35,967 bases of DNA from Pseudonocardiaceae bacterium (GCA_035546415.1 DASZXM010000445.1:1-35967); one strand, 5' to 3'; shown: positions 9,949-35,967, numbered from the stretch's first letter. Notes: generated from the letters alone by a model not told the origin. A program made the numbers and translations.

Positions 9949-10154
9949 GCGACACAGACCCGCTGGTCACGGCCCTGCGGCCGCCGCAATACAGTTTCAC
10001 TATGGTGCCACGGCATTTCCTGTCACCCGATGACCGGTGGCAACCACTGCCGTCCGTTCAATAATCGTCTCCGACACCACGGCACCAAGGGGTCACCGGA
10101 GAAGTCCCGGTGCGGGAAGCCGTTGGGAATTCGACACATTCGGAGGCTGTCATC

Positions 10155-10322: not shown

Positions 10323-10383
10323 TCTCCCCCGCTTTCCAGGCATCACAACGACATCACCGTTCATCGACCTCCAGGAGGGCGCC

Positions 10384-10677: not shown

Positions 10678-10734
10678 CGGCGGCTCCCGGTTCGGCGCGC
10701 ACCCGTGTTCCCCTGTCGTGATCGGAGATCACCC

Positions 10735-10920
10735 ATGCGCACCCAACAGCACCACGTGTCCGGACCGGACCACGGCCTGACCGCACCGGACATCGCCCAG
10801 ATCTGGCAACTCCCACTGGGCACCGTGTACCAGCTGGCCAACCAGCACGGTTGGCAGCGGTTCCGCCGCTCGGGCCGGATGCACTATTCGACCAGAGACG
10901 TCCTGCAGGTGCTGGACTAG
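10735..10920 (+). CDS. Helix-turn-helix (excisionase/MerR-like) DNA-binding protein
   Basis: LTAPDIAQIWQLPLGTVYQLANQHGW...HYSTRDVLQVL fits a short HTH_17-type protein. GGAG lies 7 nt before the ATG at 10735. Confidence 0.6.
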   Translation: MRTQQHHVSGPDHGLTAPDIAQIWQLPLGTVYQLANQHGWQRFRRSGRMHYSTRDVLQVLD

Positions 10921-17953: not shown

Positions 17954-18035
17954 GGTCAGCACGCATGCCAACCTACCGGCACCAGCCAGGGGTTTTCCGT
18001 CCGGCGGTGGTCGGCACAGGGGTCCGGACAACGCG

Positions 18036-19670: not shown

Positions 19671-20705
19671 ATGGTGTGGCGTGTTCGCGATGCGCACTTC
19701 GGCCGCTTAAGCGGCCGGGTGGCATTGACTGCTACCGCGGTACTCGCACTTGGTTTGGCGACGTCCTGCAGTGCGCTTTCCGGAAACAGCTCGGACTCGT
19801 CGGGCGGTTCGAATTCGGGGAACCTGGAAAAGCCGACCATCAAGGTCGGCGCCATCGCAGGTGCCAGCTCCGCGTCGCTGTACATCGCGGCCGACAAGGG
19901 CTACTTCAAGCAGGAGGGCCTGAACGTCCAGATCGTCACGACCAAGAACGGTTCGACGGCCCTGAACCAGATGAAGGGCGGGCAGCTGGACATCACCCTG
20001 GCCAACGACGTCAGCGGCATCCAGTTCAAGATGAAGGGCAACCCGATCGACCTGGTGTTCGACGGCCCGAGCAACGCCCCGCACACCATCGTGATCTCGG
20101 CCCTGCCCAACTCGCCCATCAAGACGCTGAAGGATCTCCAGGGCAAGAACCTGGGCATCAGCTCGCAGAAGGACGCCGTGTTCGCGACGCTGCAGCAGAG
20201 CCTGGAAGCCGTGAACGTGGACCCGAAGTCGGTCAACTACAAGACGGTTCCGTACGGGGAAAGCGAGCAGTTCCTCCAGTCGCATGCGGTGGACGCTACG
20301 GTGACCATCGAGCCGTACACCACCGAGGCCGCCGAGCAGTTGGGTGCCCGCCCCGTGGTCGACGTGTTCCCGGCCGGTAGTGCCGAGGCGAACATCCCGA
20401 ACGCCGGTTACTTCGCCAGCGAGAAGTTCGTCAAGGGCAACCCGAAGACGCTCGCCGCGTTCCAGCGCGCCATGGTCAAGGGTGCCAACGACGCGGCCAA
20501 CCGGCAGAACGTCGAGAACGCGATCGCCAAGCACATCCCGAAGCTGTCCAAGCAGGTGTTGGACGTCATGGCGCTGCCGGGCTTCCCGTCCGACCTCGAC
20601 CCGAACCGGATCCAGCGGGTCGCCGACCTGATGCAGAAGTCGGGCATCATCAAGAGCCACTTCGACATCCGGCAGATGCTCGCACCGTTCCCGACGTCGT
20701 CCTGA
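19671..20705 (+). CDS. ABC transporter substrate-binding lipoprotein, NitT/TauT (NMT1/sulfonate-nitrate-taurine) family
   Basis: Lipobox-like LGLATSC after a signal peptide, followed by an NMT1-like periplasmic binding fold (KPTIKVGAI...ALNQMKGGQLDI...). ATG at 19671 with AAAGGA upstream. Confidence 0.85.
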   Translation: MVWRVRDAHFGRLSGRVALTATAVLALGLATSCSALSGNSSDSSGGSNSGNLEKPTIKVGAIAGASSASLYIAADKGYFKQEGLNVQIVTTKNGSTALNQMKGGQLDITLANDVSGIQFKMKGNPIDLVFDGPSNAPHTIVISALPNSPIKTLKDLQGKNLGISSQKDAVFATLQQSLEAVNVDPKSVNYKTVPYGESEQFLQSHAVDATVTIEPYTTEAAEQLGARPVVDVFPAGSAEANIPNAGYFASEKFVKGNPKTLAAFQRAMVKGANDAANRQNVENAIAKHIPKLSKQVLDVMALPGFPSDLDPNRIQRVADLMQKSGIIKSHFDIRQMLAPFPTSS

Positions 20706-20707
20706 CG

Positions 20708-22252
20708 GTGAACGGTCGCCTGCTTCGCGGCGTGGCCGGTCTGGTCGGCGTCTTCCTCGTCTGGGAGATCGTCAGCCGGACCGGCCTCGTGGACGCTTTC
20801 CTGCTACCACCCCCGACGGGGGTGGTAGCCCGCGTGTTCAGCCTGCTCGGCGAGGCCGACTTCCAGGTCGCGCTGATCGCCACGCTGCTGACGTGGCTGC
20901 TGTCGCTGGGCATCACGATCGCGATCGCGGTGCCGCTGGGCATCGTGCTGGGCAGCGTGCCCGGCGTGCGGACGGCGACCAGCGCGGTGATCGAGTTCGT
21001 CCGGCCGATCCCGGCGGTGTCGCTGATCCCGGTGGCCCTGGTGCTGCTGGGCGGCGGGCCGGCCACCAACATCACCCTCGCGGCGTTCGCCGGTACGTGG
21101 CCGCTGCTGTTCAACGTCATGGGCGCGGTCCGCGAGACCGACCCGATGCTGCTGGACACGGCCAAGTCGTTCGGCCTGGGCACGGTCGCGACCGCGGTTC
21201 GAGTGCGGCTGCCCGCCGTGGCCAGGGCCGCGGTCACCGGTCTCCGGGTCACCGCCGGTCTGGAACTGATCGTGATCGTGTCGGTCGGGCTGCTCACCAT
21301 CATCGACGGCGGCGTCGGCGGCTACCTGTGGACCGCGGGTGAGTCGCTGGGCGACACCATCACGGTGTTGGCCGGCACGGTGATCATCGGCGTCCTCGGC
21401 TACGCGGTCAACCAGGGCCTGCTGGCGCTGCTGCACATCAAGTGGCTGCACCCCACGGCGAGCGGTGCGCCGGAGCGGGGCCAGCGCGGGTCGTCCCGCT
21501 GGTGGGTGCGGTTCCTCCAGCGGTGGGGCACGTTCGTGGTGGCGATCGGGCTGTGGCAGCTGGTCGCCGTGCGGGCCGACGACCCGAACGTGCCGCCCCC
21601 GGTGACCATCGCCCAGACGATCTGGCACAACGCGTCGCTCGTGGTGAACAGCACGCCGCTGTCGCTGGCCCGGTTGGGCACCGGCTGGATCATCGCGGCC
21701 GTCGTCGGCGTCGGTATGGGTCTGCTGTTCGGCCAACTCCCCCGTGCCGCCGACGTGGTCGAGCCGGTGGGCGCGTTCCTGCGGGCCATCCCACCGGTGC
21801 TGCTCATGCCGATCCTGGTGATCTGGTTCCAGCTGGGCGACACGCTGGAGATCGTGACGATCGCGCTGGGCTGTGGCTGGCCGATCTTCGTGCAGACCAT
21901 CGAAGGTGTCCGGTCGATCGAACCGGTGCTGCTGGACACGTCCCACTCGTACGGCACGGGACGGCTGCGGCACATGTTCGGCGTGGTGGCTCCGGCCGCC
22001 GCACCGAAGATCGTCACCGGCCTGCGGGTCAGCCTCAGCCTCGCCCTGATCCTCATGGTCATCACCGAACTGCTCGGCCAGTCCAGCGGGTTGGGCTACG
22101 AGCTCGACCAGGCCGGCAGCACGTTCGACTACCCGACGATGTGGGCATGCATCGTGCTGCTCGGCGTGCTCGGGTACCTGCTCAACACCATCCTGCTCGC
22201 CGCCGATCGCCGTCTCGTCTCGTGGCGGCACGAAGGGGCCACCGAAGAGTGA
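20708..22252 (+). CDS. ABC transporter permease with two fused BPD-type permease domains
   Basis: Two tandem halves each carry the EAA-like loop (first: DPMLLDTAKSFGLGTVATAVRVRLPAVARA; second: EPVLLDTSHSYGTGRLRHMFGVVAPAAAPK) and about six TM segments. Confidence 0.85.
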   Translation: MNGRLLRGVAGLVGVFLVWEIVSRTGLVDAFLLPPPTGVVARVFSLLGEADFQVALIATLLTWLLSLGITIAIAVPLGIVLGSVPGVRTATSAVIEFVRPIPAVSLIPVALVLLGGGPATNITLAAFAGTWPLLFNVMGAVRETDPMLLDTAKSFGLGTVATAVRVRLPAVARAAVTGLRVTAGLELIVIVSVGLLTIIDGGVGGYLWTAGESLGDTITVLAGTVIIGVLGYAVNQGLLALLHIKWLHPTASGAPERGQRGSSRWWVRFLQRWGTFVVAIGLWQLVAVRADDPNVPPPVTIAQTIWHNASLVVNSTPLSLARLGTGWIIAAVVGVGMGLLFGQLPRAADVVEPVGAFLRAIPPVLLMPILVIWFQLGDTLEIVTIALGCGWPIFVQTIEGVRSIEPVLLDTSHSYGTGRLRHMFGVVAPAAAPKIVTGLRVSLSLALILMVITELLGQSSGLGYELDQAGSTFDYPTMWACIVLLGVLGYLLNTILLAADRRLVSWRHEGATEE

Positions 22253-23013
22253 TGACGGACTACTTCAGACCGGCCGGCACGCAAGCGGCGCCCGGGACCC
22301 GGTTCGGCACCGAGGCGGACGCGTTCCACCGGCTTCGGCCCACCCCGCCGGAGCCGGCCGTCGAGTGGCTGGTGCGGGAGGGCATCCCGTCGGCGGTGGA
22401 CGTCGGCGCGGGCACCGGGCTGTTCACCCAACTGCTGGCCCGGCGGGTGCCCACGGTGTACGCGGTCGAGCCGGACCCGCGGATGCGGGCCCGGCTCGTC
22501 ACGCACTGTCCGGACGTGACGGTGCTGGACGGCACGGCCGAGAACATCCCGCTGCCCGACGCCAGTGTGGCAGCGGTGTTCGCGAGCTCGGCGTGGCACT
22601 GGGCCGATCCACTGCTGGCACTGCCGGAAATTGCACGTGTCCTGATGCCGGGCGGGATTCTCGGCGTCTCGTGGAACATGCCCGACCGCCGGATCGGCTG
22701 GCGGGCCAAACTGGACGAGATCACCTGGAAGACCGGGGAGGCCGGGCGCGGGCCCGGTCGCTTCGAACTGCCCGACGACGCGCCGTTCGACGAACCGGAA
22801 CATCTCGTGCACGACTGGCGGATGCGGATGACCGTGGACGAACTGGTCGCCTCACTGGCCACCTACGACCACGTCCTCGCTCTGTCCGATGTGGACCGGA
22901 CAGCGGTCCTGGAGGACGCGCGCATCTTTCTCAACGGGAATCCCGCGACATCCCGAGGCATCATCGAGGTTCCGTTCCGCACGGCCTGTTTCCGCACCAC
23001 CTATCGCGGCTGA
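22252..23013 (+). CDS. Class I SAM-dependent methyltransferase
   Basis: Motif I VDVGAGTGLFTQLL, then PDASVAAVFASSAWHW and LMPGGILGVSW. The start overlaps the permease stop (TGATG). Confidence 0.85.
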   Translation: MTDYFRPAGTQAAPGTRFGTEADAFHRLRPTPPEPAVEWLVREGIPSAVDVGAGTGLFTQLLARRVPTVYAVEPDPRMRARLVTHCPDVTVLDGTAENIPLPDASVAAVFASSAWHWADPLLALPEIARVLMPGGILGVSWNMPDRRIGWRAKLDEITWKTGEAGRGPGRFELPDDAPFDEPEHLVHDWRMRMTVDELVASLATYDHVLALSDVDRTAVLEDARIFLNGNPATSRGIIEVPFRTACFRTTYRG

Positions 23014-23052
23014 CCACCCACCGTGACCCGTCGGGGACGCAGCGACACGGCA

Positions 23053-23085
23053 GGCAACGGGTGGAGATCGATTCCGCCCGTTGCC
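23053..23085 (+). terminator. Hairpin after the methyltransferase gene
   Basis: GGCAACGGG-N15-CCCGTTGCC: a 9-bp stem, 40 nt after the stop. Confidence 0.35.
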
Positions 23086-23179
23086 ACACGCTGCGCCCCA
23101 CCAACGCCTCGCGGCGGGTTAGTCTGATGACAATCATCAAGGCAATCACCGGGCCAGGGCGAGACGAGGGACGTGCGGC

Positions 23180-23983
23180 GTGGAGCTACCGGACTGGGTG
23201 CCCGACGGCGTGGAAGTGACCGTGCCCAACGCGGCCCGGATGTACGACTACGCGCTGGGCGGTTACCACAACTTCGCGGTGGACCGGGAGTTCGTCGAGC
23301 GGGCGGAGAAGCTGATGCCCGGCGCGATCGCCGTCGGCCACGCCAACCGGGCCTTCGTCGGCCGTTCGGTGCGCTGGCTGGTCGACGCGGGCGTACGACA
23401 GTTCCTGGACATCGGCTCCGGAATCCCCACCCTGGGCAACGTGCACGAGGTCGCTCAGCTGGCGGCTCCGGAGTCCCGGGTGATGTACGTGGACATCGAC
23501 CCGGTGGCGGTCGCGCACAGCCAGGCGATCCTGTCCGGCAACGACCTGGCCGGCGTCATCCAGGCCGATCTGCGGCATCCGGCCGATATTCTCTATCACC
23601 CTGATGTGCTGGCGCTGCTTGACTTCTCGCAGCCGGTCGCGGTGTTGTTGAACGCGGTGGTGCATTTCGTACCCGACGCGGACGACCCGAAGGCCATCCT
23701 GGCGCAGATCAGGGACGCGCTGGTCAAGGGCAGCTACGTGACGATGACGCACGGCACGAAGTTCGAGGAGCGTGCCGAGGAACAGGACGACTTGGCGCAG
23801 TTGTACAAGAGCACGCCCACATCGGTGCACTACCGCACGCCGGACGAGGTGGCCGGTCTGTTTGCCGGGTTCGAGTTGGTGGAACCCGGTGTCGTCACGG
23901 TGACGGCGTGGCATCCCGACCCAGACGAGCAGGACGATCCGGCGCAACCCGGAGTCCTGGCGGCCGTCGGCCGCAAACCCTGA
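23180..23983 (+). CDS. SAM-dependent methyltransferase, DUF574 (Methyltransf_19) type
   Basis: ARMYDYALGGYHNFAVDRE, FLDIGSGIPT and VMYVDIDPVAVAHS are hallmarks of the actinobacterial DUF574 family. GTG start. Confidence 0.8.
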   Translation: MELPDWVPDGVEVTVPNAARMYDYALGGYHNFAVDREFVERAEKLMPGAIAVGHANRAFVGRSVRWLVDAGVRQFLDIGSGIPTLGNVHEVAQLAAPESRVMYVDIDPVAVAHSQAILSGNDLAGVIQADLRHPADILYHPDVLALLDFSQPVAVLLNAVVHFVPDADDPKAILAQIRDALVKGSYVTMTHGTKFEERAEEQDDLAQLYKSTPTSVHYRTPDEVAGLFAGFELVEPGVVTVTAWHPDPDEQDDPAQPGVLAAVGRKP

Positions 23984-24101
23984 TCCGTCCGCGTCCGATC
24001 GTTCGGACACTCTGGCTTTTCGGATGCCGCCGGGTGACAATCGGCCGGCACGCCGGGATTACGCCGTTCGCACAGGAGCCGCACGCCACCGAGAGCAGCC
24101 C

Positions 24102-25961
24102 ATGACGCAGACACCGAAAGCTCTCACCGCCGCCGAGCTGCTCGACCAGCGGATCAGCGCGTTCGCCAGGTCGTGGGCCAGGGTGCTGGCCAGCACCAGC
24201 TTCGTTCCCGGAGGCAGGGCGAAGGCCCGCGCCGTGCTGGAGGACGCGCTGCGACGGTTGGTCGACGTGCTCGGCGCGCAGGCGTTCGACCCGCAGGTCG
24301 GCCGGGACATCGGCAGGGACCTGGTGGCCAACCACATCTCGACGCCACGCACGCTCGGCGACTCGATCAGTCTGCTGGGCGGCCGGTTGCTGGACGAGTT
24401 GGACATCCGTTCGGCCGCTACCCAGCCGCGGCTGGCGGCGTTGCTGGGCCAGTTGGCGACCGGGTTCACGGAGGCGCTGCGGGACGGCGCGCTCACGGCG
24501 GCGGAGGACATCAACAAGGCCGAGCGGGCCGCGTGGCGGGACCAGCAGCGGCGGATGTACCGGCGGTTGCAGCACGCCCTGCTGCACGACCAGTTGACGG
24601 ACCTGCCCAACCGGGCCCAGTTCACCGGCTGGCTGGAGGAGATCATCGCCAGGGCGGCGGTGGACGACCGGGTCGGGTTGTGCGTCATCAACCTGGACCG
24701 CTTCAAGACGATCACCGACAGCATCGGCATGGACAAGGCCGACCAGTTGTTGTTGGCGGTGGCGAACCGGTTGCGGCCGCTGGCCAACCGCTACGGCCAC
24801 TTCCTCGCGCACCTGGGTGGCGACACGTTCGCCATCGGTGTCGAAAGGACGTTGAGCAGCGACGACGTGGCGAAGGTCGCCGATCGTGCGCTGCGCACGT
24901 TGAGCGACCCGATCCGGTTGGACGGCATGCAGATCCCGGTCACGGCCAGCGCCGGAATCGTGGAACGGACCGTTGTCGGTGCCCAGGCCGTCGAGTTGAT
25001 CCGGGCGGCGGACATCTCGGTCGGCTGGGCGAAGGTGGACCAGGGTGCGCACCGGCGGGGCCGGTGGGCGGTGTTCGACTCGCTGCGCAACGCCGAGGAC
25101 GTGCGGAAGCACACGCTGACGGCGGCGATGCCGGCGGCGTTGGCGCGCAACGAGTTCGGTTTGGCCTACCAGCCGTTGACGCGGTTGGGCGACGGGGAGT
25201 TGATCGGTGTCGAGGCGTTGGCCCGGTGGCACCACCCGTCGCTGGGGCTCATCGGGCCCGGGCAGTTCATCCCGGCGGCGGAGGACACCGGCCTGATCGT
25301 GCCGTTGGGGATCGCGCTGCTGGAACAGGCGTGCCGGCAGGCGGTTCGGTGGCGGGACGGCTGCGGTGTGACGGTCCTGATGAGTGCGAACCTCGCCGTG
25401 GCGCAGATCCGGGAGCCCGGGCTGGTGCCGGCGATCGCGTCGGTGCTGCGGCGGACCGGTTGGGACCCCACGGATCTCCAGTTGGAGATCGTCGAGAGCG
25501 CGTTCATCGGGACCGACGACGAGGCCATGGAGACGTTGGACGGGCTGACCCGGTTGGGGATCCGGTTGGCCATCGACGATTTCGGGACCGGGTACTCGTC
25601 GTTGGCCTACCTGGCTGAGCTTCCCGTGCACAACGTGAAGTTGGCCGCCCGGTTCCTACGGGGGTTGGACGGTGGGAGCGCCAATCGGACGATTCTGCCC
25701 GCCCTGGTGGCCTTGAGTCACGACCTCGAGTTGAGCGTGACGGCTGAGGGGATCGAGAACCGGGAGCAGGCGGAGTACCTGCGGGAGATCGGGTGTGACC
25801 TGGGGCAGGGGTACTTCCTGGGGCGGCCGGTGCGGGCCGAGATGATCACCGAGCTGATGACTCGCCGTGGGTCGTCGGGGTCGGGCTCGGAGCCCGGGAT
25901 GCGGCCAGAGGTGGGGATGCGGCCCGCCGCCCCCGACGCGACGGGCCGCAAGATCTCCTGA
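24102..25961 (+). CDS. GGDEF (degenerate, GGDTF) - EAL domain protein with an unassigned ~170-aa N-terminal domain
   Basis: GGDTF at 24816-24830. EAL-domain residues look intact (GVEALARW, MSANL, LQLEIVES, DDFGTGYSSL, KLA, AEGIE, GQGY). Confidence 0.9.
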   Translation: MTQTPKALTAAELLDQRISAFARSWARVLASTSFVPGGRAKARAVLEDALRRLVDVLGAQAFDPQVGRDIGRDLVANHISTPRTLGDSISLLGGRLLDELDIRSAATQPRLAALLGQLATGFTEALRDGALTAAEDINKAERAAWRDQQRRMYRRLQHALLHDQLTDLPNRAQFTGWLEEIIARAAVDDRVGLCVINLDRFKTITDSIGMDKADQLLLAVANRLRPLANRYGHFLAHLGGDTFAIGVERTLSSDDVAKVADRALRTLSDPIRLDGMQIPVTASAGIVERTVVGAQAVELIRAADISVGWAKVDQGAHRRGRWAVFDSLRNAEDVRKHTLTAAMPAALARNEFGLAYQPLTRLGDGELIGVEALARWHHPSLGLIGPGQFIPAAEDTGLIVPLGIALLEQACRQAVRWRDGCGVTVLMSANLAVAQIREPGLVPAIASVLRRTGWDPTDLQLEIVESAFIGTDDEAMETLDGLTRLGIRLAIDDFGTGYSSLAYLAELPVHNVKLAARFLRGLDGGSANRTILPALVALSHDLELSVTAEGIENREQAEYLREIGCDLGQGYFLGRPVRAEMITELMTRRGSSGSGSEPGMRPEVGMRPAAPDATGRKIS

Positions 25962-26095
25962 CCTGGTCGTTTGCCGCAGGTACCACGGTTGAGCGTGCGG
26001 TAAACGTGGTGTCGTTGTCAGTTGACGGTTGTGGTGGCGGGTTGGTTCTGCCCCGGGCGGATGTGTCACCTGTTCGGCGGCTTCCCCCATGCGGG

Positions 26096-26131
26096 AGCCC
26101 GGGCGCCCTGGTGTGGGTGGGCGCCCGGGCT
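26096..26131. terminator. Bidirectional hairpin between convergent genes
   Basis: AGCCCGGGCGCCC-N10-GGGCGCCCGGGCT: a 13-bp perfect stem between the GGDEF-EAL stop and the chitinase stop. Confidence 0.6.
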
Positions 26132-26148
26132 GGTCCGCGCGGACCGGG

Positions 26149-27585
26149 TCAGCCGGTGTAACCGGCGAAGGCCTTGGCGAAGGCGTTGGGCGACTGGGTG
26201 ATGCTGCTGCACGTCGGGGACGCCCACGTCTGCGCGCCTCCGGGGCACTGGGTGTCCCTGGCCGCCGACCAGAACGACAGCCACGCCAGGTGCTTCTGTT
26301 GGGCGAACGTGACCAGCTTCGCGGCGTTCGCCGTGGTGAACGTTTCCGAGCTGACGTCGTTCACGCCGATCATCGGGGTCACCGCGATCCTGGACCACGC
26401 GTCCGCGTCGGACAGGCCCCACACGTTCTTCACCGTCGCCTGGACCGCCGTTGCCGCGTCGATCGCGTTCTGGCCCATGTCCGCCGGGAACGAACTGCCG
26501 TAGTCCATCGCCATGATGTTCACCGCCGCGATCGTCGCTCCGTTGTTCTTGGCGCTCTGCAGGAGGTTCACGCCGTCCTGCGTCAGGCCCGACGGGAGGA
26601 CCGGCAGCGTGTACGACACGCTCAGCGACTTGTCGTTCTGTTCCAGGATCTTGATGGCCTGGTTGCGGCGGTCGTTGGCGGTCGTGTTGCTCAGTGCCGC
26701 ACCCTCGATGTCGAAGTCGATCTGTTTCGCGTTCGTCGCCGTGATCACGCTCTGGTACGCCGACGCCAACGCCTGCGCACTGGAGCAGTTCAGCGCCAGT
26801 TCGCTGCCGCTGGCCCCGCCGAACGACACCCGCACGTCACCGCCCGCCGCGCGCAGTCCGCTGATGTCGGACATGATCGTCGGGTCGTTCACCGCCGTCA
26901 CACCGCCCCACTTGGGGGTGCAGTTGTTGCCGCTGTCGACGATGAACGCCAGGTTGAAGAACTTGTTGCCGGTGGCCTTCGCCGCTCCCGCCAGGTCGTA
27001 CAGCGGGTACAGCGACAGGTCCGCGTACGGTGCGAAACGGCCGAACGAGCCGGATGCCGGTGGCGGTGCCGACGTCGACGAACCCGTGGACGCCGGCGGC
27101 GTCTTCGTTGTCGTCGTCGTGGGCGGTGGCGCCGTCGCCGTGGACGTCGGTGCGCCCACCGGGGTCGACGGGGCCGTGCCGCTGCCGCAGTCCACGTTGT
27201 TGATCGTGCAGGTGCTCGGCTTGTCGCCGCCCGTGCCCGAGACCTGGAAGCCGAAGTCCGTGCTGGACCCCGGTGTCAGCGTGCCGTTCCAGTCGTCGTT
27301 GCGGACCGTGACCTGGTTGCCCTGCTTCGTCATGACGCCGTTCCACAGGCCCGTGACCGTGTCGCCGGCCGGCAGGCTGAACGACACCGTCCAACTGTGG
27401 GTCGTCTCGCCGCCGGTGTTGCGTACCACGTACGTCGCGACGTACCCGTCGTCCCACTGGCTCGACTTGGCGAAGGTGGCGGTCATCTCGTCGGCTGAAG
27501 CAGTGCCGCCGAGCGCCACGCCGACGCCCGCGGCCAGCACGGCGGTCAGTCCCCCCATCACGACCCACCGCATGCGCTTGCCCAT
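26149..27585 (-). CDS. Secreted GH18 chitinase with an N-terminal CBM2 carbohydrate-binding module
   Basis: Signal peptide, then a CBM2-like domain (QWDDGYVATYVVRNTG...WNGTL...FGFQVSG...C), a Thr/Pro linker, and a GH18 catalytic motif QIDFDIEG (DxDxE). ATG at 27585 after GGAGG. Confidence 0.9.
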   Translation of the reverse strand: MGKRMRWVVMGGLTAVLAAGVGVALGGTASADEMTATFAKSSQWDDGYVATYVVRNTGGETTHSWTVSFSLPAGDTVTGLWNGVMTKQGNQVTVRNDDWNGTLTPGSSTDFGFQVSGTGGDKPSTCTINNVDCGSGTAPSTPVGAPTSTATAPPPTTTTTKTPPASTGSSTSAPPPASGSFGRFAPYADLSLYPLYDLAGAAKATGNKFFNLAFIVDSGNNCTPKWGGVTAVNDPTIMSDISGLRAAGGDVRVSFGGASGSELALNCSSAQALASAYQSVITATNAKQIDFDIEGAALSNTTANDRRNQAIKILEQNDKSLSVSYTLPVLPSGLTQDGVNLLQSAKNNGATIAAVNIMAMDYGSSFPADMGQNAIDAATAVQATVKNVWGLSDADAWSRIAVTPMIGVNDVSSETFTTANAAKLVTFAQQKHLAWLSFWSAARDTQCPGGAQTWASPTCSSITQSPNAFAKAFAGYTG

Positions 27586-27721
27586 CAATCCTCCGAACCT
27601 CAGGGATACGAAAAGCCGAAGTCGAATCGGCTGGGCGCCAACATAACGGCGGGGCAACAGCAAGCGAAACTCGTTCACATTAAGGGCGGCCTAAGGAATG
27701 GTTATCGCTGGCCAGGGCCCT

Positions 27722-28240
27722 TCACTGCTCGTACGTCTGGACCGACGGCGGGTGGCCGTTCCAGGTGGCGAACACCGACGACGTCGCGTTTCCGGACGTG
27801 AAATCCACCCGCAGCCAACCCGTTTCCTGCCACACCTGAACGGAATAGCCGGCCGCCGGCGTCGCCGACACCAGCGTCGCCCGGGTCTGCGTCATCGACA
27901 GCACCACTTCCCCACCTTTGACGGTGTACCGGTGCACATCGGCGTCGGTCGTCGTGGTCGTCGTCGTGGTCCGGTGCGTCGTGGTGGGTGTCGCCGTCGT
28001 CGTGGACGGCGTAGTCGTCGTGGACCGAACGGACGTGGACGGCGTGGGCGAAACGGCCGTCAGCCGCTCCGTCGGCGGCGGCGAACCCGTCGGCAACGAG
28101 GTGGCCGGCACCTGTAGCTGCACCGGTTTCATCACCGCGTCGTGCACCACCGTGCGCACGCCCAGCCAGGACACGCCCACCGCTGCGGCGGTGGCGCACA
28201 TCCACGCGACGGCGATCATCGGGGCCCGCACGGCGCCCAT
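27722..28240 (-). CDS. Membrane-anchored protein with a poly-Thr linker, function unknown
   Basis: N-terminal TM segment (MIAVAWMCATAAAVGVSWLGV), a Thr/Pro-rich run (STTTTPSTTTATPTTTHRTTTTTTTT), and a C-terminal beta-rich ~70-aa domain. The start is uncertain (28240 or 28219). Confidence 0.55.
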   Translation of the reverse strand: MGAVRAPMIAVAWMCATAAAVGVSWLGVRTVVHDAVMKPVQLQVPATSLPTGSPPPTERLTAVSPTPSTSVRSTTTTPSTTTATPTTTHRTTTTTTTTDADVHRYTVKGGEVVLSMTQTRATLVSATPAAGYSVQVWQETGWLRVDFTSGNATSSVFATWNGHPPSVQTYEQ

Positions 28241-28272
28241 CTTGCCCGATCGATGTCGTACCGTGCACCACT

Positions 28273-28959
28273 GTGGCGAACGTGCTCGTGGTCGAAGATG
28301 AGCCTGCTGTCCGTACCGCGGTGATCCGGTACCTGACCGACGCATCGCATGCCGTGCGCAGCGTCGGCACCGCCCTGGAGGCACTCCGGGAGGTCGCCCA
28401 GAGGTGCCCTGACGTGGTCGTACTCGACCTCGGGCTGCCCGACCTGTCCGGCGCCGAGGCGCTGAAGATGATGCGCAGCGTGTGCGACGTCCCGGTGATC
28501 GTGGCGACCGCGCAGGACGAGGAGTCGACCATCGTGTCGCTGCTCAACAGCGGCGCGGACGACTACCTGATCAAACCGTTCTCCGGCGAGCACCTCAACG
28601 CACGTCTTACGGCTCTCTTACGGCGCACCCAGCGCGGCACCGAGCAGCACGTGCTGTCGGTCGGCGGGCTGCGGATGGACCTGCGCCGCAGGGAGGCCAC
28701 GCTGGACGGCCGGCCGCTGGACCTGGTGCGCCGCGAGTTCGACCTGCTCGCGTTCCTGGCCGCCAGGCCCGGGGAGGTCGTCAGCAGACGGGAACTGCTC
28801 GCCCAGGTGTGGCAGCAGCCCTACGGTGAGGACCAGACCATTGACGTGCACCTGTCCTGGTTGCGCCGCAAGCTCGGCGAGCGCGCCGCCGCACCGCGCT
28901 ACCTGCACACCGTCCGCGGTGTCGGGGTGAAACTGGTCGAACCACCGCGGTCGTCATGA
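28273..28959 (+). CDS. OmpR/PhoB-family response regulator
   Basis: Receiver domain (VLVVEDE, VVVLDLGLPDLSG, KPF) and a winged-helix output domain (REFDLLAFLA...VHLSWLRRKL...TVRGVGVKL). Confidence 0.9.
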   Translation: MANVLVVEDEPAVRTAVIRYLTDASHAVRSVGTALEALREVAQRCPDVVVLDLGLPDLSGAEALKMMRSVCDVPVIVATAQDEESTIVSLLNSGADDYLIKPFSGEHLNARLTALLRRTQRGTEQHVLSVGGLRMDLRRREATLDGRPLDLVRREFDLLAFLAARPGEVVSRRELLAQVWQQPYGEDQTIDVHLSWLRRKLGERAAAPRYLHTVRGVGVKLVEPPRSS

Positions 28960-28974
28960 GGCGGTCGTCATGAG
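28947..28974. repeat. Perfect 14-bp tandem duplication GCGGTCGTCATGAG x2 at the RR-stop/HK-start junction
   Basis: Read directly: 28947-28960 equals 28961-28974. Confidence 0.9.
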
Positions 28975-30361
28975 GTGGGCGCTGGTCCGCGTCGCCGTCG
29001 CGGTGACCGCGATGATCTCCCTGGCGTTCCTCATCCCGCTCGCCGTGACCGTGCGGGAGATCGCCCGCGACAAGGCGTTCTCCGACGCCGAACAGCAGGC
29101 CGCAGCCATGGCGCCGGTGCTGGCCGTGACCACCGACGCCGACGCCCTGCGACGCGCCCTGGCCAGCACCCAGGACGGCGCGGCCGGCGACATCGCCGTC
29201 CACCTGCCCTCCGGTGCCGTGATCGGGGCCAGCCACGCGTCCACCTCCGCGCTCGGCGAGGCCACCCGGGAGGCCAAGGCGGACACCGTGGACGCTCCCG
29301 GCGGCTACACCGTGCTGCAACCGGTGGTGCTCAGCCAGGGCGTCGCGCTCATCGAGGTGTACGTGCCCGACTCCGAACTCGACCAGGGCGTCGGGACGGC
29401 GTGGCTGGTGCTGTCCGGTGTCGCGCTGGTGCTGGTGCTCGGATCGACGCTGGTCGCCGACCGACTGGCCGCCAGGTTGGTGCGCGCCGCCAAACACCTG
29501 GCCGAGGTGGCGCGGTCGCTCGGGTCCGGTGACACGAGCGTCCGGGTCACCGCGCAGGGCCCGTGGGAGCTGCGCGAAGCCGGACTGGCGTTCAACATCA
29601 TGGCCGGCCGGATGGACCACATGCTCGCCGCGGAACGCGAACTCGCCGCCGACCTGTCACACCGCCTGCGTACCCCGCTGACGGCCCTGCGGCTCAACGC
29701 CGCCGCGCTGGGCAACGGCCACGAGGCCGAACAGACCCGGCAGGCCGTGCAGCGGCTGGAGCAGGAGGTCGACCAGGTCATCCGGGCCGCCCGCGGCCAG
29801 GGCCGGGCACCCGGGCCGGTGCGCTGCGACGCGACCCAGGTGCTCCAGGAACGGCTGGGATTCTGGTCGGCGCTGGCCGAGGACCAGGGCCGGGCGTGGC
29901 GGTTCGTCGGCGGCATGGCCGCAGCACCCGTGCCGGTCGCCGCGACCGACCTGGCCAACGTGATGGACGTGCTGCTGGGCAACGTGTTCCGGCACACCGA
30001 CGAGCGGATCGCGTTCTCCGTCTCGCTGACCGTCGAACAGCGCACGGTGTTCGTCCTCGTCGAGGACGCCGGGCCGGGCATCGCCGACCCGGAGGCCGCG
30101 CTGCGCCGCGGACACGGCGCGGGCGGCAGCGGGTCGACCGGGCTCGGCCTGGACATCGTCCGCCGCATCGCCGAGGGCGCCGGCGGCGGCGTCCACATCG
30201 GACGGTCCGCACTGGGCGGTGCCGCCGTGCACGTCTGGTTCCCGACCGACCGGATCGACGACCAGGGCTCCGGCCAGGCGGGTAGCATGGTCAGACGCCG
30301 GTCCGGCAGGCACCGGCAGTCGGTGGAGGCCATCACGGAGCGCATCCGCGCCGTCCGGTGA
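28970..30361 (+). CDS. Sensor histidine kinase (TM-HAMP-HisKA-HATPase)
   Basis: H-box ELAADLSHRLRTPLTAL, N-box LLGNVFRHT, G-boxes EDAGPGI and GSTGLGLDIV, plus two TM segments. Confidence 0.9.
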   Translation: MRWALVRVAVAVTAMISLAFLIPLAVTVREIARDKAFSDAEQQAAAMAPVLAVTTDADALRRALASTQDGAAGDIAVHLPSGAVIGASHASTSALGEATREAKADTVDAPGGYTVLQPVVLSQGVALIEVYVPDSELDQGVGTAWLVLSGVALVLVLGSTLVADRLAARLVRAAKHLAEVARSLGSGDTSVRVTAQGPWELREAGLAFNIMAGRMDHMLAAERELAADLSHRLRTPLTALRLNAAALGNGHEAEQTRQAVQRLEQEVDQVIRAARGQGRAPGPVRCDATQVLQERLGFWSALAEDQGRAWRFVGGMAAAPVPVAATDLANVMDVLLGNVFRHTDERIAFSVSLTVEQRTVFVLVEDAGPGIADPEAALRRGHGAGGSGSTGLGLDIVRRIAEGAGGGVHIGRSALGGAAVHVWFPTDRIDDQGSGQAGSMVRRRSGRHRQSVEAITERIRAVR

Positions 30362-30507
30362 GCGGGCCCACCGCCGTCCGGCGGCCGTCACCGTGATCAG
30401 CGCAACTCGTCGGCACGTCCCACCGCCGGGTTGTCAGGTGCTACGGATAATGTCAAGTACCGTGGTCGCCGGTGTCCCGCGCACCGAGCGCCTCCTGTAC
30501 ACGCGCC

Positions 30508-33500
30508 ATGACCTGGGAGAACGACCCTGTGACTGCTGAGACCCTGTACGGGGCCGACGACCTGACCCACCTGGAAGGTCTGGAAGCGGTCCGCAAGCGA
30601 CCCGGCATGTACATCGGGTCCACCGACAGCCGCGGGATCAACCACCTGCTCACCGAGATCGTCGACAACTCGACGGACGAGGGAATCGCAGGTCACGCGA
30701 CCCGGGTCGTCGTCACGATGCACGCCGACGGCTCCATCCAGGTCGACGACGACGGCCGCGGCATTCCGACCGGTGTGCACGCCAAGTCCGGTCTGTCCGG
30801 TGTCGAGCTGGTGCTGACCAAGCTGCACGCGGGCGGCAAGTTCGGCGGCTCCGGCTACAAGACCTCCGGTGGCCTGCACGGCGTCGGCGCGTCCGCCGTC
30901 AACGCCCTTGCCCTGCGCTTCGACATCACCGTGAAGCAGAACGGCAAGGTCCACCAGATGTCCTTCGCGCACGGCGTGCCCGGAGAGTTCGACGGTCCGG
31001 GCCCCAAGGCGAAGTTCACCCAGCGCTCCGGCCTGCGCGTCGTCGGCAAGATGAAGCGCGGCGAATCCAGCGGCACGTCGATCCGCTACTGGTACGACGC
31101 GCGCTACTTCGACCCGGGCGCCAAGCTCGACACCGACGCGGTGCTGGCCAAACTGCGGCACACGGCCTTCCTGGTCCCCGGCGTCACCTACGTGCTGCGC
31201 GACGCCACGGCCGGCAACATCGAGGAACAGACGTTCCACTACCCCAACGGCATCTCCGACATGGTGGACTTCCTCACCCCCGCTGGCGACCGCCCGGTGT
31301 CGGGAACGCTGCTGGTCAACGGAACCGGCACCTACCTGGAGAACGCGGCCGACGAGAACGGCGTCATGCGGTCCAAAGTGGAGCGCCACGCCGAGGTCGA
31401 GGTCGCGCTGCGCTGGAGCACCGGCTACGACCGCACCATCGAATGCTTCACCAACACCATCCGCAACGTGCACGGCGGCACCCACCGCAAGGGATTCGAA
31501 CGCGCCGCGCTGCGCGCGATCCAGGACGCGGTGTCCCGCAGCAGGGGCCTGCTCAAGCCGAAGGAGGACCCACCGGTCCTGGACGACGTCCTGGAAGGCA
31601 TGACGGCCGTCATCCACGTGCGCATCCCCGAACCGCAGTTCACGTCGCAGACCAAGGACGAGCTGTCCACGGCCGGCATCACCAAGGTCATCCAGGCTGT
31701 CGTCGAACGCCACATCAAGGCGTGGACCGAGGACCGCAAGACCAAGACCGAGGCCAAGACCGTGCTGCAGAAGGTGGTCGACGCGTCCCGCGTACGGCTC
31801 ACCCAGAAGCAGCAGAAGGACGCGGCCAGGCGGAAAACGGCGCTGGAAGGCGCCGCGATGCCGGCCAAACTCGTCGACTGCCGCACCACCGGCGTCTCCC
31901 GCAGTGAACTGTTCCTCGTGGAAGGCGACTCCGCATTGGGCTGCTTCACCGGTGACACGATGGTCGCGTTGGCATCCGGCACGGCCATGTCGTTCAAGGA
32001 TCTCGCCGACGACTGGCAGCGGGGCGTCACTCACTTCGGGTACACGACGAACAAGGCCGGCCGCGTGGTGTTGGCACCGCTGGTCGCGCCGCGGCTCACG
32101 AAAACCGGCGCCCCGCTGGTCCGGGTGACGCTGGACAACGGCCAATCCGTCCGCTGCACGCCGGACCACCTGTTCCGGCTGCGCGACGGCTCGTACCGCC
32201 GTGCCGATGCCCTCGAAGCAGGCGACTCGTTGATGCCGCTCTACCGGTCGGTATCCGCGAAGTCCCCGGGTGACAACTTGGATGGCTACGAGCGCGTCTG
32301 GATGAACGACCGGGACGAGTGGGTCTACACCCACTACCTGGCCGACGCCCACAACCTGCGACACGGCACGGACAGTGCCGCGAACGGCAACGTCCGACAC
32401 CACGTCGACGTGAACAAGCGCAACAACGACCCCCGCAACATCCGCCGGATGACGTGGGAGGACCACGCCGCCCTGCACGCGTCGATGATGGGCGACCAGG
32501 TACGCCAGGGTTACCGGGCCTGGATGGCCAACGGTGGCCTGGAGTTCAAGTCGGCCATGCTGTCCGGCCAGTGGCGCGACCCGGCGTTCCGTGAGGCCTG
32601 CCTGGCACGCCTGGCAGCACTCAACAGCGATCCGGCGTTCCGGGAGCGGATCGAACTGGGTTTCCAGGACTGGTACAACGGGTTCAGCGACAGCGAACGG
32701 CAGGCGTACGCCGAGCGGATGCGCGAGCGCCAGGCCACCTACTGGGCCCACCCGGAACATCGAGCCGCGGCGGCGGAACGCGTCAGGGCGTTTTTCACCG
32801 ACCCGAAGCGCCGAGCCGAGTGGCGTGCGCGGTCCTGCGAGCAGTGGCAGGACGCCGAGCTTCGAGCCTGGCGCTCCCAGCGCACCACCGAGCAGTTCGC
32901 CGACCCCGCCGAGCGCGAACGGCAACGCCGGGCAGTACTGGCCTGGCACGCGGAACATCCCGAGTTCGGGGAGCAGCACTCGGCACGGATGAAGCAGCGG
33001 ATGGCCGACCCGGCCACCGAACATCTCGCGCGCGTCCAAGCAGGTCGTGCGCACTACGTGGCGTCGGTCCCGCGCGCCGAGCGGGTCGCACAGCAGGCCG
33101 ACGGCCGCCGGATCGCTGCGCTGCGCCGCCTCGCCCCGTTCGCTTCGTTGCCGGACGCGGAGATGGCCAGCGCGTACGAGGCCGAGCGGCTCCGGGCGGC
33201 GCGCACCGGCCTGCGATTCGATCGGCTGCTGGCCTGCTACGACGGTGACCACGCACGGCTGCGCGAAGCGACCGCCCTCGTCAACCACCGCGTGGTCGCG
33301 GTCACGCCGCTGGCCGAGACGGCGGACGTCTACGACCTGACCGTCGACGGCTACCACAACTTCGCGCTGGAAGCCGGCGTCTTCGTCCACAACAGTGCGC
33401 GCATGGCGCGTGTCTCGGAATACCAGGCGTTGCTTCCGTTGCGCGGCAAGATTCTCAACGTGCAGAAGGCGTCCCTGGCCGACACGCTGCGCAACGTGGA

Positions 33501-34032
33501 GATCGCGTCCATCGTGCAGGTGCTGGGCGCCGGCACCGGGCGGACGTTCGAACTGTCCCAGATGCGCTACGGCCGGGTCATCCTGATGGCCGACGCGGAC
33601 GTCGACGGCTCGCACATCCGGACGCTGCTGATCACACTGTTCGCCAAGTACATGCGACCCGTCATCGAGGACGGTCGGCTGTACGCGGCCATGCCCCCGC
33701 TACACAAGATCGTCACCAAGGGCCGCAACTCGGAGACGATCTTCACCTTCACGCAGCGCGAGATGGAAACCACGGTCGCGCGCCTGGAGAAGGCCGGCAA
33801 ACAGGTCGTCACGCCCGTCCCCCGGTTCAAGGGCCTCGGCGAGATGGACGCGGACGAACTGTGGGAGACCACGATGAACCCGGCGACCAGGTCGGTGCGC
33901 CGCATCACCATGGACGACGTCGACGCCGCCGAGACGGCACTCGAACTGCTGATGGGTGAAAAGGTCGAACCGAGGCGGAACTGGCTCATCGAGTCGTCCG
34001 GCCGGGTCGACCAGGAAGCCATCGACATCTGA
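30508..34032 (+). CDS. Type IIA DNA topoisomerase subunit B (GyrB/ParE family, ParE-like motifs), interrupted by an intein
   Basis: GHKL ATPase (LEGLEAVRKRPGMYIGSTDSRG, EIVDNSTDE, DDGRGIP, KLHAGGKFGGSGYKTSGGLHGVGAS). Toprim ELFLVEGDSALG is followed by the intein, then SARMARVSEYQALLPLRGKILNV, MADADVDGSHI and PLHKI. An alternative GTG start lies at 30472. Confidence 0.9.
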   Translation: MTWENDPVTAETLYGADDLTHLEGLEAVRKRPGMYIGSTDSRGINHLLTEIVDNSTDEGIAGHATRVVVTMHADGSIQVDDDGRGIPTGVHAKSGLSGVELVLTKLHAGGKFGGSGYKTSGGLHGVGASAVNALALRFDITVKQNGKVHQMSFAHGVPGEFDGPGPKAKFTQRSGLRVVGKMKRGESSGTSIRYWYDARYFDPGAKLDTDAVLAKLRHTAFLVPGVTYVLRDATAGNIEEQTFHYPNGISDMVDFLTPAGDRPVSGTLLVNGTGTYLENAADENGVMRSKVERHAEVEVALRWSTGYDRTIECFTNTIRNVHGGTHRKGFERAALRAIQDAVSRSRGLLKPKEDPPVLDDVLEGMTAVIHVRIPEPQFTSQTKDELSTAGITKVIQAVVERHIKAWTEDRKTKTEAKTVLQKVVDASRVRLTQKQQKDAARRKTALEGAAMPAKLVDCRTTGVSRSELFLVEGDSALGCFTGDTMVALASGTAMSFKDLADDWQRGVTHFGYTTNKAGRVVLAPLVAPRLTKTGAPLVRVTLDNGQSVRCTPDHLFRLRDGSYRRADALEAGDSLMPLYRSVSAKSPGDNLDGYERVWMNDRDEWVYTHYLADAHNLRHGTDSAANGNVRHHVDVNKRNNDPRNIRRMTWEDHAALHASMMGDQVRQGYRAWMANGGLEFKSAMLSGQWRDPAFREACLARLAALNSDPAFRERIELGFQDWYNGFSDSERQAYAERMRERQATYWAHPEHRAAAAERVRAFFTDPKRRAEWRARSCEQWQDAELRAWRSQRTTEQFADPAERERQRRAVLAWHAEHPEFGEQHSARMKQRMADPATEHLARVQAGRAHYVASVPRAERVAQQADGRRIAALRRLAPFASLPDAEMASAYEAERLRAARTGLRFDRLLACYDGDHARLREATALVNHRVVAVTPLAETADVYDLTVDGYHNFALEAGVFVHNSARMARVSEYQALLPLRGKILNVQKASLADTLRNVEIASIVQVLGAGTGRTFELSQMRYGRVILMADADVDGSHIRTLLITLFAKYMRPVIEDGRLYAAMPPLHKIVTKGRNSETIFTFTQREMETTVARLEKAGKQVVTPVPRFKGLGEMDADELWETTMNPATRSVRRITMDDVDAAETALELLMGEKVEPRRNWLIESSGRVDQEAIDI
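31942..33393 (+). mobile_element. Intein (484 aa) with an HNH homing-endonuclease domain and a DP-x-x-R repeat module
   Basis: Block A CFTGDTMVAL, block B VRCTPDHLF (TxxH), blocks F/G VYDLTVDGYHNFALEAGVFVHN followed by +1 Ser. HNH motif VRHHVDVNKRNNDPRNIRRMTWEDHAALH at about 32392-32478. Confidence 0.85.
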
Positions 34033-34051
34033 GCTGGGAGAGTAAGTAGAC

Positions 34052-35967
34052 ATGGCACGCCGCAAGGGCCCGACGACCAAGGTCGACCCGTCCGCGTTCG
34101 ACAGCGCGGGCGCCACGGTGTTGGAGAACCCGGTCCGCACGGAGATCGAGGACTCGTACCTGGAGTACGCGTACTCGGTCATCCATTCCCGCGCCCTGCC
34201 CGATGCCCGGGACGGCCTCAAGCCGGTGCACCGTCGGATTCTCTTTTCCATGCACGAGAACGGTTATCGCCCGAACAGCGCCTACGTGAAATCGTCGCGC
34301 GTGGTCGGTGACTGTTTCGTACGTGGCGCGTTGGTGTCGACTCAGGACGGGCTGCGGCCGATCGAGGATGTCGAGGTCGGCGACCTCGTGCTGGACGGTC
34401 ACGGCAACACCGTCCCGGTGACCGCCGTCTACGAGAATCCGGTCTCGGAACTGGTCCGGGTGACCTGGTCCAACGGGCACACCATGACGGTGACGCCGGG
34501 TCAGCGCTTCCGGACGGTGAACGACGACCTGACGATCGGCTGGACCGCCGCACGCGAACTCGCCGGCCGGCGCACGATCGGCAACGGCGAGAGCCACCAG
34601 CCGCGGCTGGACGCGCACCGCGACGACGTCTACCCGTATGTGCTCGGCCTGATCGTCGCCGAGGGCTTCCCGGTGGATCGCGCTCGCGCCGTCGACGGCC
34701 GTGTCCGGATCCACATGTGCGATGTCGACCCACTGGATGTCGCCCATGGCTGGGCGATCGCCAACGGTCTCAACGTCTCGCGGGGCAAGCGGGTTGCGAC
34801 GAACCCGGCGCACCGCGATCAGCACATCCTGACCTTCGCGCGCCACGACGGCCTGCTCGAAGCAGCGATGCCACTGAGTGCGGCCAAGAGCGTTCCGGCA
34901 AGTGTGCTCGGCGACCGATCGGCATGGCTGCCCTTCCTGGCCGGCTTCTTCGACGGCGACGGGTACGTCCGCAAGAAGAACCGAGAGATCGTCCTCGTCA
35001 GCACGAGTTCGACGCTGATCCGCCAGATCTACTCGATGCTGGCGGACATGGGCATCCACGGTCATCACTGGGTGCGCGGTGCCTTCGACCGGACCGCTGA
35101 GCTCTTCGGCCTGTCGTTGGCCGGCCGGGACGCCGCGACGCTGGGCACAGCACTGCTGCGCTGGTCGAAGATCGACTACAAGCGCGACGGCCTGGCCAGG
35201 CTGACCGGGATCGATTATCAGTACGGCGGCAAGCAGGGCAACGACCGTCTGCCGTGTGCTCCGGTGATGGCGGAGTTCTCGGATGCCCACATCGGTGGCG
35301 GCTGGTTCCGGGACACCGACGGCAACGCGTTCCGCGCTTCCCTGTCCGCGGTGACGGGTGCCAAGGTCCGGTACGGCAAGGACCGCAACGGCATCGCGTT
35401 GGCCGACCGGGTGTTCCCGCTGTCGCGGGCGCACGTCGACGGCTGGGTGGACAAGCTCCGTCGGATCGGATCGCCGCTGGCCGACCGCCTCGACGCGCTG
35501 ACCGGTCTGTCGTTCCTGCGGGTGACGTCGGTCGAGCCGGTCGAGTCGGACACGACGTACGACATCCAGGTCGGCAGCGACGAGCACGCCTTCGTGGTCG
35601 AGGGCTTCGTCGTGCACAACTGCATGGGCAAGTACCACCCGCATGGCGACACCGCGATCTACGACGCCATGGTGCGTCTGGCGCAGGACTTTTCCATGAA
35701 TGCGCCGCTCGTCGACGGGCACGGGAATTTCGGGTCACCCGACGACGGGCCCGCGGCCAGCCGCTACACCGAGGCCCGGATGTCCGATGCGGCGATGCTG
35801 CTGGTGGGTGAACTGAACGAGGACACCGTCGACTTCCGGGCCAACTATGACGGTTCGCTGCAGGAGCCGTCCGTGTTGCCCGCCGCGTTTCCGAATCTGT
35901 TGGTGAACGGGACGTCCGGCATTGCCGTCGGTATGGCCACCAACATGATTCCGCACAACATGGGTGA
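34052..35967 (+). CDS. Type IIA DNA topoisomerase subunit A (GyrA/ParC family), interrupted by an intein; 3' truncated by window edge
   Basis: Not in the ORF track. My own translation from the ATG at 34052 (GGGAG upstream) reads [30 protein letters not shown]...SSRVVGD, then the intein, then [26 protein letters not shown]...VDGHGNFGS...[10 protein letters not shown]...[23 protein letters not shown]. No stop occurs before the window end. Confidence 0.9.
34313..35620 (+). mobile_element. Intein (436 aa) with a LAGLIDADG homing-endonuclease domain
   Basis: Block [23 protein letters not shown] motifs [11 protein letters not shown] (about 34637-34669) and [14 protein letters not shown] (about 34930-34971). 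Blocks [24 protein letters not shown] followed by +1 Cys. Confidence 0.85.

Follow-up and report, generated by a model that had tools for sequence, protein, structure and literature searches.

The 35,967-nucleotide (nt) contig DASZXM010000445.1 of a Pseudonocardiaceae bacterium (GCA_035546415.1), analysed over its entire length and referred to below as the window, ends in two adjacent genes for a type IIA topoisomerase, i.e. a ParE/GyrB-type B subunit followed by a ParC/GyrA-type A subunit, and each gene carries an intein, hereafter the B intein and the A intein. It is very probable that this locus is a topoisomerase IV-like operon colonised by two separate mobile inteins of selfish character, and that the A intein entered recently by homing. 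The features of the locus are collected in Table 1.

Table 1. Features of the intein-bearing topoisomerase locus, with positions counted from the first base of the window; a slash marks a splice junction or insertion site
Feature	Position	Strand	Details
B-subunit (ParE/GyrB-type) precursor gene	30508..34032	+	1174 amino acids (aa) with intein; translation, Pfam
Toprim motif EGDSALG	31921..31941	+	Ends at the N-terminal junction of the B intein; residue -1 is Gly478
B intein, 484 aa (aa 479-962)	31942..33393	+	Cys1, TPDH, blocks F/G, His-Asn, +1 Ser
B-intein block B, TPDH	32158-32169	+	Intein aa 73-76
HNH-type endonuclease motif of the B intein, VRHHVDVNKRNNDPRNIRRMTWEDHAALH	32392..32478	+	PHROG profiles
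All-helical stretch of the B intein, rich in Arg, Glu and Trp, about 260 aa	32494..33276	+	About aa 185-445; AlphaFold
B-intein blocks F/G, VYDLTVDGYHNFALEAGVFVHN	33328-33393	+	Terminal His-Asn is 483-484
B-A spacer, 19 nt	34033..34051	+	Shine-Dalgarno-like GGGAGAG; operon arrangement
A-subunit (ParC/GyrA-type) precursor gene, 5' part	34052..35967	+	638 codons, no stop; translation
Upstream arm of the co-conversion tract	34258..34312	+	Differs from the sister contig L001 at 14 of 55 nt
A intein, 436 aa (aa 88-523)	34313..35620	+	Cys1, TPGQ, two LAGLIDADG motifs, His-Asn, +1 Cys
A-intein block B, TPGQ	34493-34504	+	Intein aa 61-64; Gln where the canonical residue is His
A-intein LAGLIDADG motifs, LGLIVAEG and LAGFFDGDG	34637-34669, 34934-34966	+	Sequence, Pfam
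A-intein C-terminal blocks	35555-35620	+	D417, H425, H435-N436
Downstream arm of the co-conversion tract	35621..35812	+	32 mismatches in 192 nt against L001, Cys+1 codon included
Predicted catalytic Tyr codon (AASRY/TEARM)	35765..35767	+	Follows the A-intein site by 49 residues

The original prediction, made from this sequence, had placed the two genes 19 nt apart, had described an A gene running out of the window without a stop codon and had delimited the inteins at 31942-33393 and 34313-35620. Re-translation returned the same spacing and a frame open from 34052 to the last base, the A gene being truncated by the assembly and not by the window, and the intein limits proved exact to the base, with the junction residues present at both. 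The GGGAGAG of the spacer lies about 10 nt 5' of the A start codon. Pfam recognises HATPase_c, DNA_gyraseB, Toprim, DNA_gyraseB_C and Intein_splicing in the B precursor, whose spliced extein amounts to 690 aa, and DNA_topoisoIV split by LAGLIDADG_3 and Hom_end in the A precursor. Both inserts carry splice-junction residues, and orthologues that lack the respective insert are colinear across its junction.

The B insert is by all its signatures a class-1 intein, and is predicted to splice. Its junctions read GDSALG/CFTGD...VFVHN/SARMAR, and the insertion site, EGDSALG/S, separates the acidic Toprim motif from its continuation SARMARVSEYQALLPLRGKILNV. The insert scores above the cut-offs of Intein_splicing (61.1 bits, cut-off 35.8), TIGR01445 (37.5, cut-off 24.5) and TIGR01443 (25.1, cut-off 15.6), and Foldseek pairs its modelled Hint part with the inteins of Mtu RecA, Ssp DnaB and NrdJ-1 (E about 2e-5). 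B exteins are colinear over residue 478/479 in about 70 loci, e.g. L017 and L089 (683 aa), and the intein-free B protein of L017 aligns with extein residues 2-690 as a single piece, at 94 % identity. Between the two halves of the Hint domain lies the motif VRHHVDVNKRNNDPRN...DHAALH, whose residues are nearly invariant among 32 homologues and which is matched by three PHROG profiles named 'HNH endonuclease' (phrog_7545, 2.6e-8; phrog_21964, 1.3e-4; phrog_15471, 2e-4), so that an HNH endonuclease is likely present. Foldseek with the AlphaFold model of the B intein matched only the Hint part. The helical region downstream of the motif comprises 14 consecutive helices with a predicted local distance difference test (pLDDT) of 65-75; it has no Pfam or PDB match and is presumed to be the DNA-binding part of the endonuclease.

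The A intein has the junctions RVVGD/CFVRG...FVVHN/, followed by Cys+1, and scores 20.4 with TIGR01443 (cut-off 15.6). A LAGLIDADG endonuclease within it is well supported by Pfam (LAGLIDADG_3, 39 bits, cut-off 22.5; Hom_end, 23.4, cut-off 21.1) and by an AlphaFold model (pLDDT 86, predicted template modelling score 0.87) that Foldseek matches to PI-PfuI (3e-19), TliVMA (1e-16), PI-SceI, I-SceI and the free-standing I-DmoI. Both acidic residues of the LAGLIDADG motifs are kept, whereas they are lost in degenerate relatives, and the protein would be expected to cleave DNA. When the two inteins were compared with PDB sequences, the intein matches were no more than marginal, 1am2 aligning to aa 399-436 of the A intein. 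The insertion site, VVGD/C, lies in the DNA-gate region immediately before the KYHPHGD helix, and corresponds to the junction between Asp72 and Val73 in Escherichia coli GyrA numbering, in the quinolone-resistance region. At the same place, the A protein of a sister contig described below (L001) reads VVGD and then Ala, is 825 aa long and is colinear across the junction; many intein-free alleles of 827-828 aa also exist.

The two inteins had been described as unrelated and as bearing different endonuclease families. The second statement is well supported by Pfam and Foldseek for LAGLIDADG in the A intein, and is likely on PHROG and the motif for HNH in the B intein, where Pfam is weak. The first is too strong: the two Hint domains do align, although the alignment is confined to block B and blocks F/G, and the inteins are better regarded as distinct alleles with different endonucleases than as strictly unrelated elements.

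Since the inteins interrupt the Toprim motif in one subunit and the DNA-gate region in the other, both precursors would have to self-splice before an active A2B2 enzyme could form; judging from these insertion sites, it is very unlikely that the unspliced precursors are active.

Which type IIA topoisomerase is interrupted was assessed by comparing exteins with reference profiles, the C-terminal features of the A subunit being read from L001 because the A gene of the window ends before the C-terminal domain. The B extein stays below the NCBIfam cut-offs for gyrB (TIGR01059, 662 vs 882; NF004189, 701 vs 740) and also for parE (parE_Gpos, 583 vs 900; parE_Gneg, 509 vs 723). Likewise, the intein-free A orthologue of L001 stays below those for gyrA (NF004043, 752 vs 902; TIGR01063, 720 vs 877) and parC (parC_Gpos, 541 vs 813; parC_Gneg, 539 vs 629), and the one cut-off that it exceeds is that of NF004044, 'DNA topoisomerase (ATP-hydrolyzing)' (848 vs 654). 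No GyrA box (QRRGGKG-like) was found in this 825-aa orthologue, and Pfam DNA_gyraseA_C gave only faint matches to it. In public sources, close A homologues go by the name 'DNA gyrase/topoisomerase IV subunit A' or 'DNA topoisomerase IV subunit A', NCBI using topoisomerase IV subunit A, and the neighbouring genes, i.e. a response regulator and histidine kinase pair upstream, a GGDEF-EAL protein and transporters, are not dnaA, dnaN or recF. Because of the gyrB and gyrA scores below cut-off, the missing GyrA box, the names of the homologues and the non-oriC surroundings, the data support the view that the interrupted enzyme is not canonical gyrase but a topoisomerase IV-like one, the second type IIA topoisomerase of an actinomycete of Pseudonocardiaceae type. 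The original prediction, which had favoured a topoisomerase IV-like paralogue away from oriC, is thus supported; on the profiles, the generic NF004044 assignment stands, and the cut-offs of the curated parE and parC equivalogs are not reached.

The history of the A intein can be read from the sister contig L001. This 65.9-kb contig from the Joint Genome Institute (JGI) encodes the closest B protein of the database searched (P0001, 99 % identical) and aligns with window positions 20506-34308 at 99.54 % identity over 13,807 nt. It carries the B intein (98 % aa identity) and an empty A site, with Ala at +1 and the sequence ...GTGGTCGGCGAT/GCAATGGGAAAG... at the insertion point. From the start of the A gene to 34257 the two contigs show no mismatch in 206 nt, and from the base after 35812 to the end of the window none in 155 nt; the mismatches are found only in the two arms of a tract flanking the intein (Table 1). 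Gene conversion started by an endonuclease, with the flanking exteins converted along with the insertion site, would be expected to leave such a footprint. Because a near-identical contig has an empty site and the differences are restricted to this flanking tract, the A intein appears to have invaded recently, and the proposal of two independent invasions is strongly supported, a 99.5 %-identical strain having the B intein without the A intein.

The same arrangement could be imagined as a metagenome assembly chimera, in which the intein-bearing allele of another organism was joined to this A gene, all the more as the contig ends only 347 nt past the A intein and as a search for the exact B protein of the window, made to trace the sample, found no record. 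A chimera would, however, need two symmetric switch points, with 100 % identity to L001 regained for the last 155 nt, and would have to leave the reading frame and all junction residues intact. Such an artefact is extremely improbable, and it was rejected on the ground that complete identity to the sister contig resumes on both sides of the tract.

The direction of the event is a finer question, since two sequences taken alone give the same pattern for a gain in the window and for a loss in L001, by precise replacement of the intein-bearing allele with a foreign intein-free one. The L001 tract is itself unusual, with a GC content at third codon positions (GC3) of 0.68 vs 0.91 in the remainder of the gene and with unusual residues (Ala+1 and AAQRY). 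Other intein-free alleles resemble it, however: GC3 falls locally in L089 and L090 as well, both have ATTTATGACGC in common with the L001 tract, and Ala occupies the +1 position in 5 other intein-free alleles. The window tract, for its part, is nearer than that of L001 to the intein-bearing alleles in 79 of 81 loci. Loss in L001 is for us an unlikely explanation; because of the 79 tract comparisons and of the resemblance of the L001 tract to L089 and L090, a recent gain of the A intein by homing is the more likely course of events. Similarity among A inteins scarcely follows host relatedness (rho 0.28), which is consistent with horizontal spread of this intein.

At the level of the alleles, a dip in GC3 at the insertion site was seen in intein-free sequences (L001:13748-14000, L089 and L090; 0.65-0.76 vs about 0.8-0.9 in the flanks) and not in intein-bearing ones (mean 0.85; window 34255-34312 and 35621-35812). 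In intein-free A homologues (P0145-P0240), the residue equivalent to +1 (window 35621-35623) is Val in 41 cases, Cys in 18, Thr in 8 and Ala in 5; the Cys residues could be scars of past occupancy, or could mark targets that are already splicing-ready. The B intein also differs between the two strains: within the HNH motif, an in-frame +3/-3 indel pair separates window 32404-32423 from L001:11897-11917, against a background of 99.5 % identity, the window having the family consensus HHVDVNKRNNDPR and L001 having HHHVDVNKRNDPR. The endonuclease of the L001 B intein is possibly decaying.

The window and L001 form a natural before/after pair for bacterial intein homing, with both ends of the conversion tract mapped (55 nt and 192 nt), and they offer a ready enzyme and substrate for an actinobacterial LAGLIDADG intein endonuclease.

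To place this pair among its relatives, each intein was surveyed separately. The best 120 matches to the B precursor all contain Intein_splicing and come from Pseudonocardiaceae and Micromonosporaceae (Kutzneria, Amycolatopsis, Saccharothrix, Lentzea, Actinophytocola, Prauserella, Micromonospora, Actinoplanes and others); the usual length is about 1167 aa, at 75-88 % identity, and some have shortened inteins. A scan with one genome per species returned 260 loci that encode inteins related to the A intein, and the 80 best of them have intact open reading frames, mostly of 430-437 aa, with 56-76 % identity. Besides these full-size forms, the A site is occupied by partly deleted inteins and by mini forms of 129-200 aa in which no splice residue has been lost; every stage of the intein life cycle is represented in the family at this site.

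When both genes of each locus were compared, all four combinations of presence and absence were found. L001 and L090 have the B intein only; most of L005-L084, as well as L002 (Phytohabitans) and L004 (Actinoplanes), have the A intein only; L003, L013, L025, L034, L039, L048, L049, L081 and L083 have both; L089 has neither. Of the 79 A-intein loci that could be evaluated, 8 have the B intein too. A second A-subunit intein, AASRY/C...HN/TEARM, at the classical mycobacterial GyrA site, is present in L005, L034 and L042 (about 9450-10740 in each), where it is intact and 429 aa long, and in P0131, so that the topoisomerase IV-like enzyme of Amycolatopsis silviterrae (L034) holds three inteins. A survey by Novikova et al. 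(2016, PMC4760082) counts 50 inteins in the GyrA COG and 33 in the GyrB COG, Actinobacteria included, within a replisome-centred intein network. With at least nine other double-intein loci and these catalogued GyrA- and GyrB-COG inteins, the double state is neither unique nor of a new kind. Each of the two alleles is frequent among the Pseudonocardiaceae and Micromonosporaceae sequenced so far, and the rarity implied at the outset does not hold. A literature search found nothing specific on topoisomerase IV inteins in these genera.

Such loci are poorly served by public annotation. In public collections the B precursors frequently bear no other name than 'hypothetical protein' or 'ATP-binding protein', the public gene calls for the intein-bearing A genes P0126, P0138 and P0143 (Plantactinospora, Micromonospora) begin inside the intein, and in Phytohabitans (L002) the B and A genes are called as several pieces. 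The annotation of intein-bearing B/A loci is hence unreliable, the genes often being mis-called.

A distinctive property of the A intein concerns its splicing domain. It lacks the Thr-x-x-His of block B, while Cys1, D417, H425, H435-N436 and Cys+1 are all present. Gln64 aligns with His76 in block B of the B intein and is located in a predicted turn between strands 57-60 and 65-69 of the AlphaFold model. The block B Gln is found in 81 of 81 A-intein relatives (L002-L084), and a Lys or Arg three residues after it is mostly conserved in the lineage. Additionally, 1.84 billion cluster representatives were searched with the first 100 residues of the A intein, and 150 representatives were examined (P0241-P0365 among them). 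These include 32 Hint N-domains with Gln at block B, every one preceded by the GyrA/ParC motif KSARxVG[DE], and 101 related Hint N-domains with His, a single one of which is at a KSARxVG[DE] site.

Reviews describe the block B His as the most conserved residue of inteins and count only two inteins that lack it, one of them a pseudogene (PMC4031507, PMC6333167); it is essential in many inteins (PMC6333167). A literature search of incomplete coverage found no description of a Gln variant, and the lineage appears to be previously uncharacterised. The mini-inteins are instructive here: because their endonuclease is gone and TPGQ is nonetheless kept with all the other splice residues, their sequences suggest that they do splice. 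It is plausible, if somewhat short of probable, that a large and old lineage at KSARxVG[DE]/C...HN/C[MLI]GxYHPHGD splices without the block B His, using Gln at this position (B:10). The Asp or Glu at -1, or the conserved Lys or Arg three residues after the Gln, may possibly compensate. If true, this would be a natural and abundant His-less variant of class-1 splicing chemistry, and the Gln-B:10 sequences, including mini-inteins of 129-142 aa, would offer material for studying what activates the N-S acyl shift when the His usually regarded as essential is missing.

A regulatory role through conditional splicing had also been suggested. In such a reading, domesticated inteins would gate the topoisomerase after translation, for instance through a redox response of Cys1 and Cys+1 of the A intein. 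Conditional splicing is documented for the DnaB intein of Mycobacterium smegmatis (PMC6195587) and for Mtu RecA (PMC11377839), the A intein does have Cys at both 1 and +1, and across two families the conservation of the B intein (71-76 %) comes close to that of its extein (77-91 %). Near-identical strains nevertheless differ in having the A intein, relatives show every combination of the two inteins, the pattern of retained and decayed endonucleases is that of selfish elements, and no regulation-specific sequence feature was found. A role as a switch is therefore improbable, and the proposal of a regulatory layer finds no support, although conditional splicing is possible by analogy with other actinobacterial inteins. 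Selfish elements, and not regulators, are what the strain-level presence and absence, the series of endonuclease decay and the patchy co-occurrence point to.

We propose the following history for the selfish inteins of this operon. The B intein, with its Hint domain, HNH-type motif and helical region, would be an old and widely shared resident of the B gene. The A intein would have entered later, when its endonuclease triggered double-strand-break repair from a diverged donor allele, and this homing event would have brought along about 55 nt of donor extein upstream and 192 nt downstream. Through the conversion, the Ala codon at +1 would also have been replaced by one for Cys, thereby supplying the splicing nucleophile.

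Several points weigh against this account. The window holds only the 5' part of the A gene, and the direction of the A event is deduced from two strains and outgroups only. No donor closer than 75.6 % nt or 76 % aa identity to the A intein was found in 185,579 species genomes, and a metagenome scan gave only 4 loci, all at 74 % aa identity or less. The A intein scores below two Pfam cut-offs (Intein_splicing, 24.5 vs 35.8; Hint_2, 28.1 vs 28.4) and, as it has no block B His, its sequence does not guarantee efficient splicing. Finally, the HNH label of the B intein relies on PHROG and the motif, Pfam HNH_3 giving 13.1 bits vs a cut-off of 24.8 and the AlphaFold model being unreliable around the motif (pLDDT below 50 over aa 103-191).

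Elsewhere in the window, a 999-aa fusion of glycyl-tRNA synthetase alpha and beta is encoded at 15032-18031 on the minus strand (tRNA-synt_2e, aa 27-303; tRNA_synt_2f, aa 334-871), a form unexpected in an actinomycete. An Rfam scan of the whole window returned no match.

The B intein of the window appears to resemble the classical GyrB intein, Ssp GyrB of Synechocystis, which likewise follows a Toprim motif (GDSAGG), has Ser at +1 and starts with CFSGDTLVAL, as compared with CFTGDTMVAL in the window. The host of the Ssp intein is a cyanobacterial gyrase B, whereas the B intein of the window has an HNH motif followed by about 260 aa of helices. As for the A intein, the mycobacterial GyrA inteins (Mxe/Mle; NF038098) have an actinobacterial A-subunit host as well, share the class-1 arrangement Cys1...HN, occur with a LAGLIDADG endonuclease or as mini forms, and are similar in blocks F/G (1am2). 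They have Thr at +1 and TANH at block B, where the window has Cys and TPGQ. In addition, they are hosted by true gyrase and not by a topoisomerase IV-like paralogue, and they sit directly after the catalytic Tyr (position 116/117 of the NF038098 profile), the A intein of the window lying 49 residues upstream.

The closest parallel to the His-less A intein is the Tko CDC21-1 intein, also a class-1 intein with Cys1 and no His at B:10 (PMC4031507, PMC6333167). That intein is archaeal, interrupts another protein and makes up for the missing His with a Lys located outside the motifs, whereas the A-intein family has Gln at B:10 and a single GyrA/ParC insertion site. In the catalogue of Novikova et al. 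(PMC4760082), both inteins of the window would fall in the same GyrA/GyrB-family category, which at the level of the survey text is not divided into gyrase and topoisomerase IV-like paralogue. For the host enzyme, the experimental precedent is the topoisomerase IV (ParE/ParC) of Streptomyces, a decatenase and the second type IIA topoisomerase of actinomycetes (PMC3905888); the abstract of that work reports no inteins, and the enzyme of the window, known from its sequence, carries two. Several independent inteins in one replication-related machine are also known from haloarchaeal MCM, in which as many as four sites occur (PMC10643990), and from M. smegmatis DnaB, with two inteins (PMC6195587), and in these systems as in the window the distribution would be shaped by homing and co-conversion. 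Unlike those, the inteins of the window lie 920 nt from each other in neighbouring genes for two different subunits, and the conversion tract of the A intein, which extends 55 nt upstream, stops short of the B gene.

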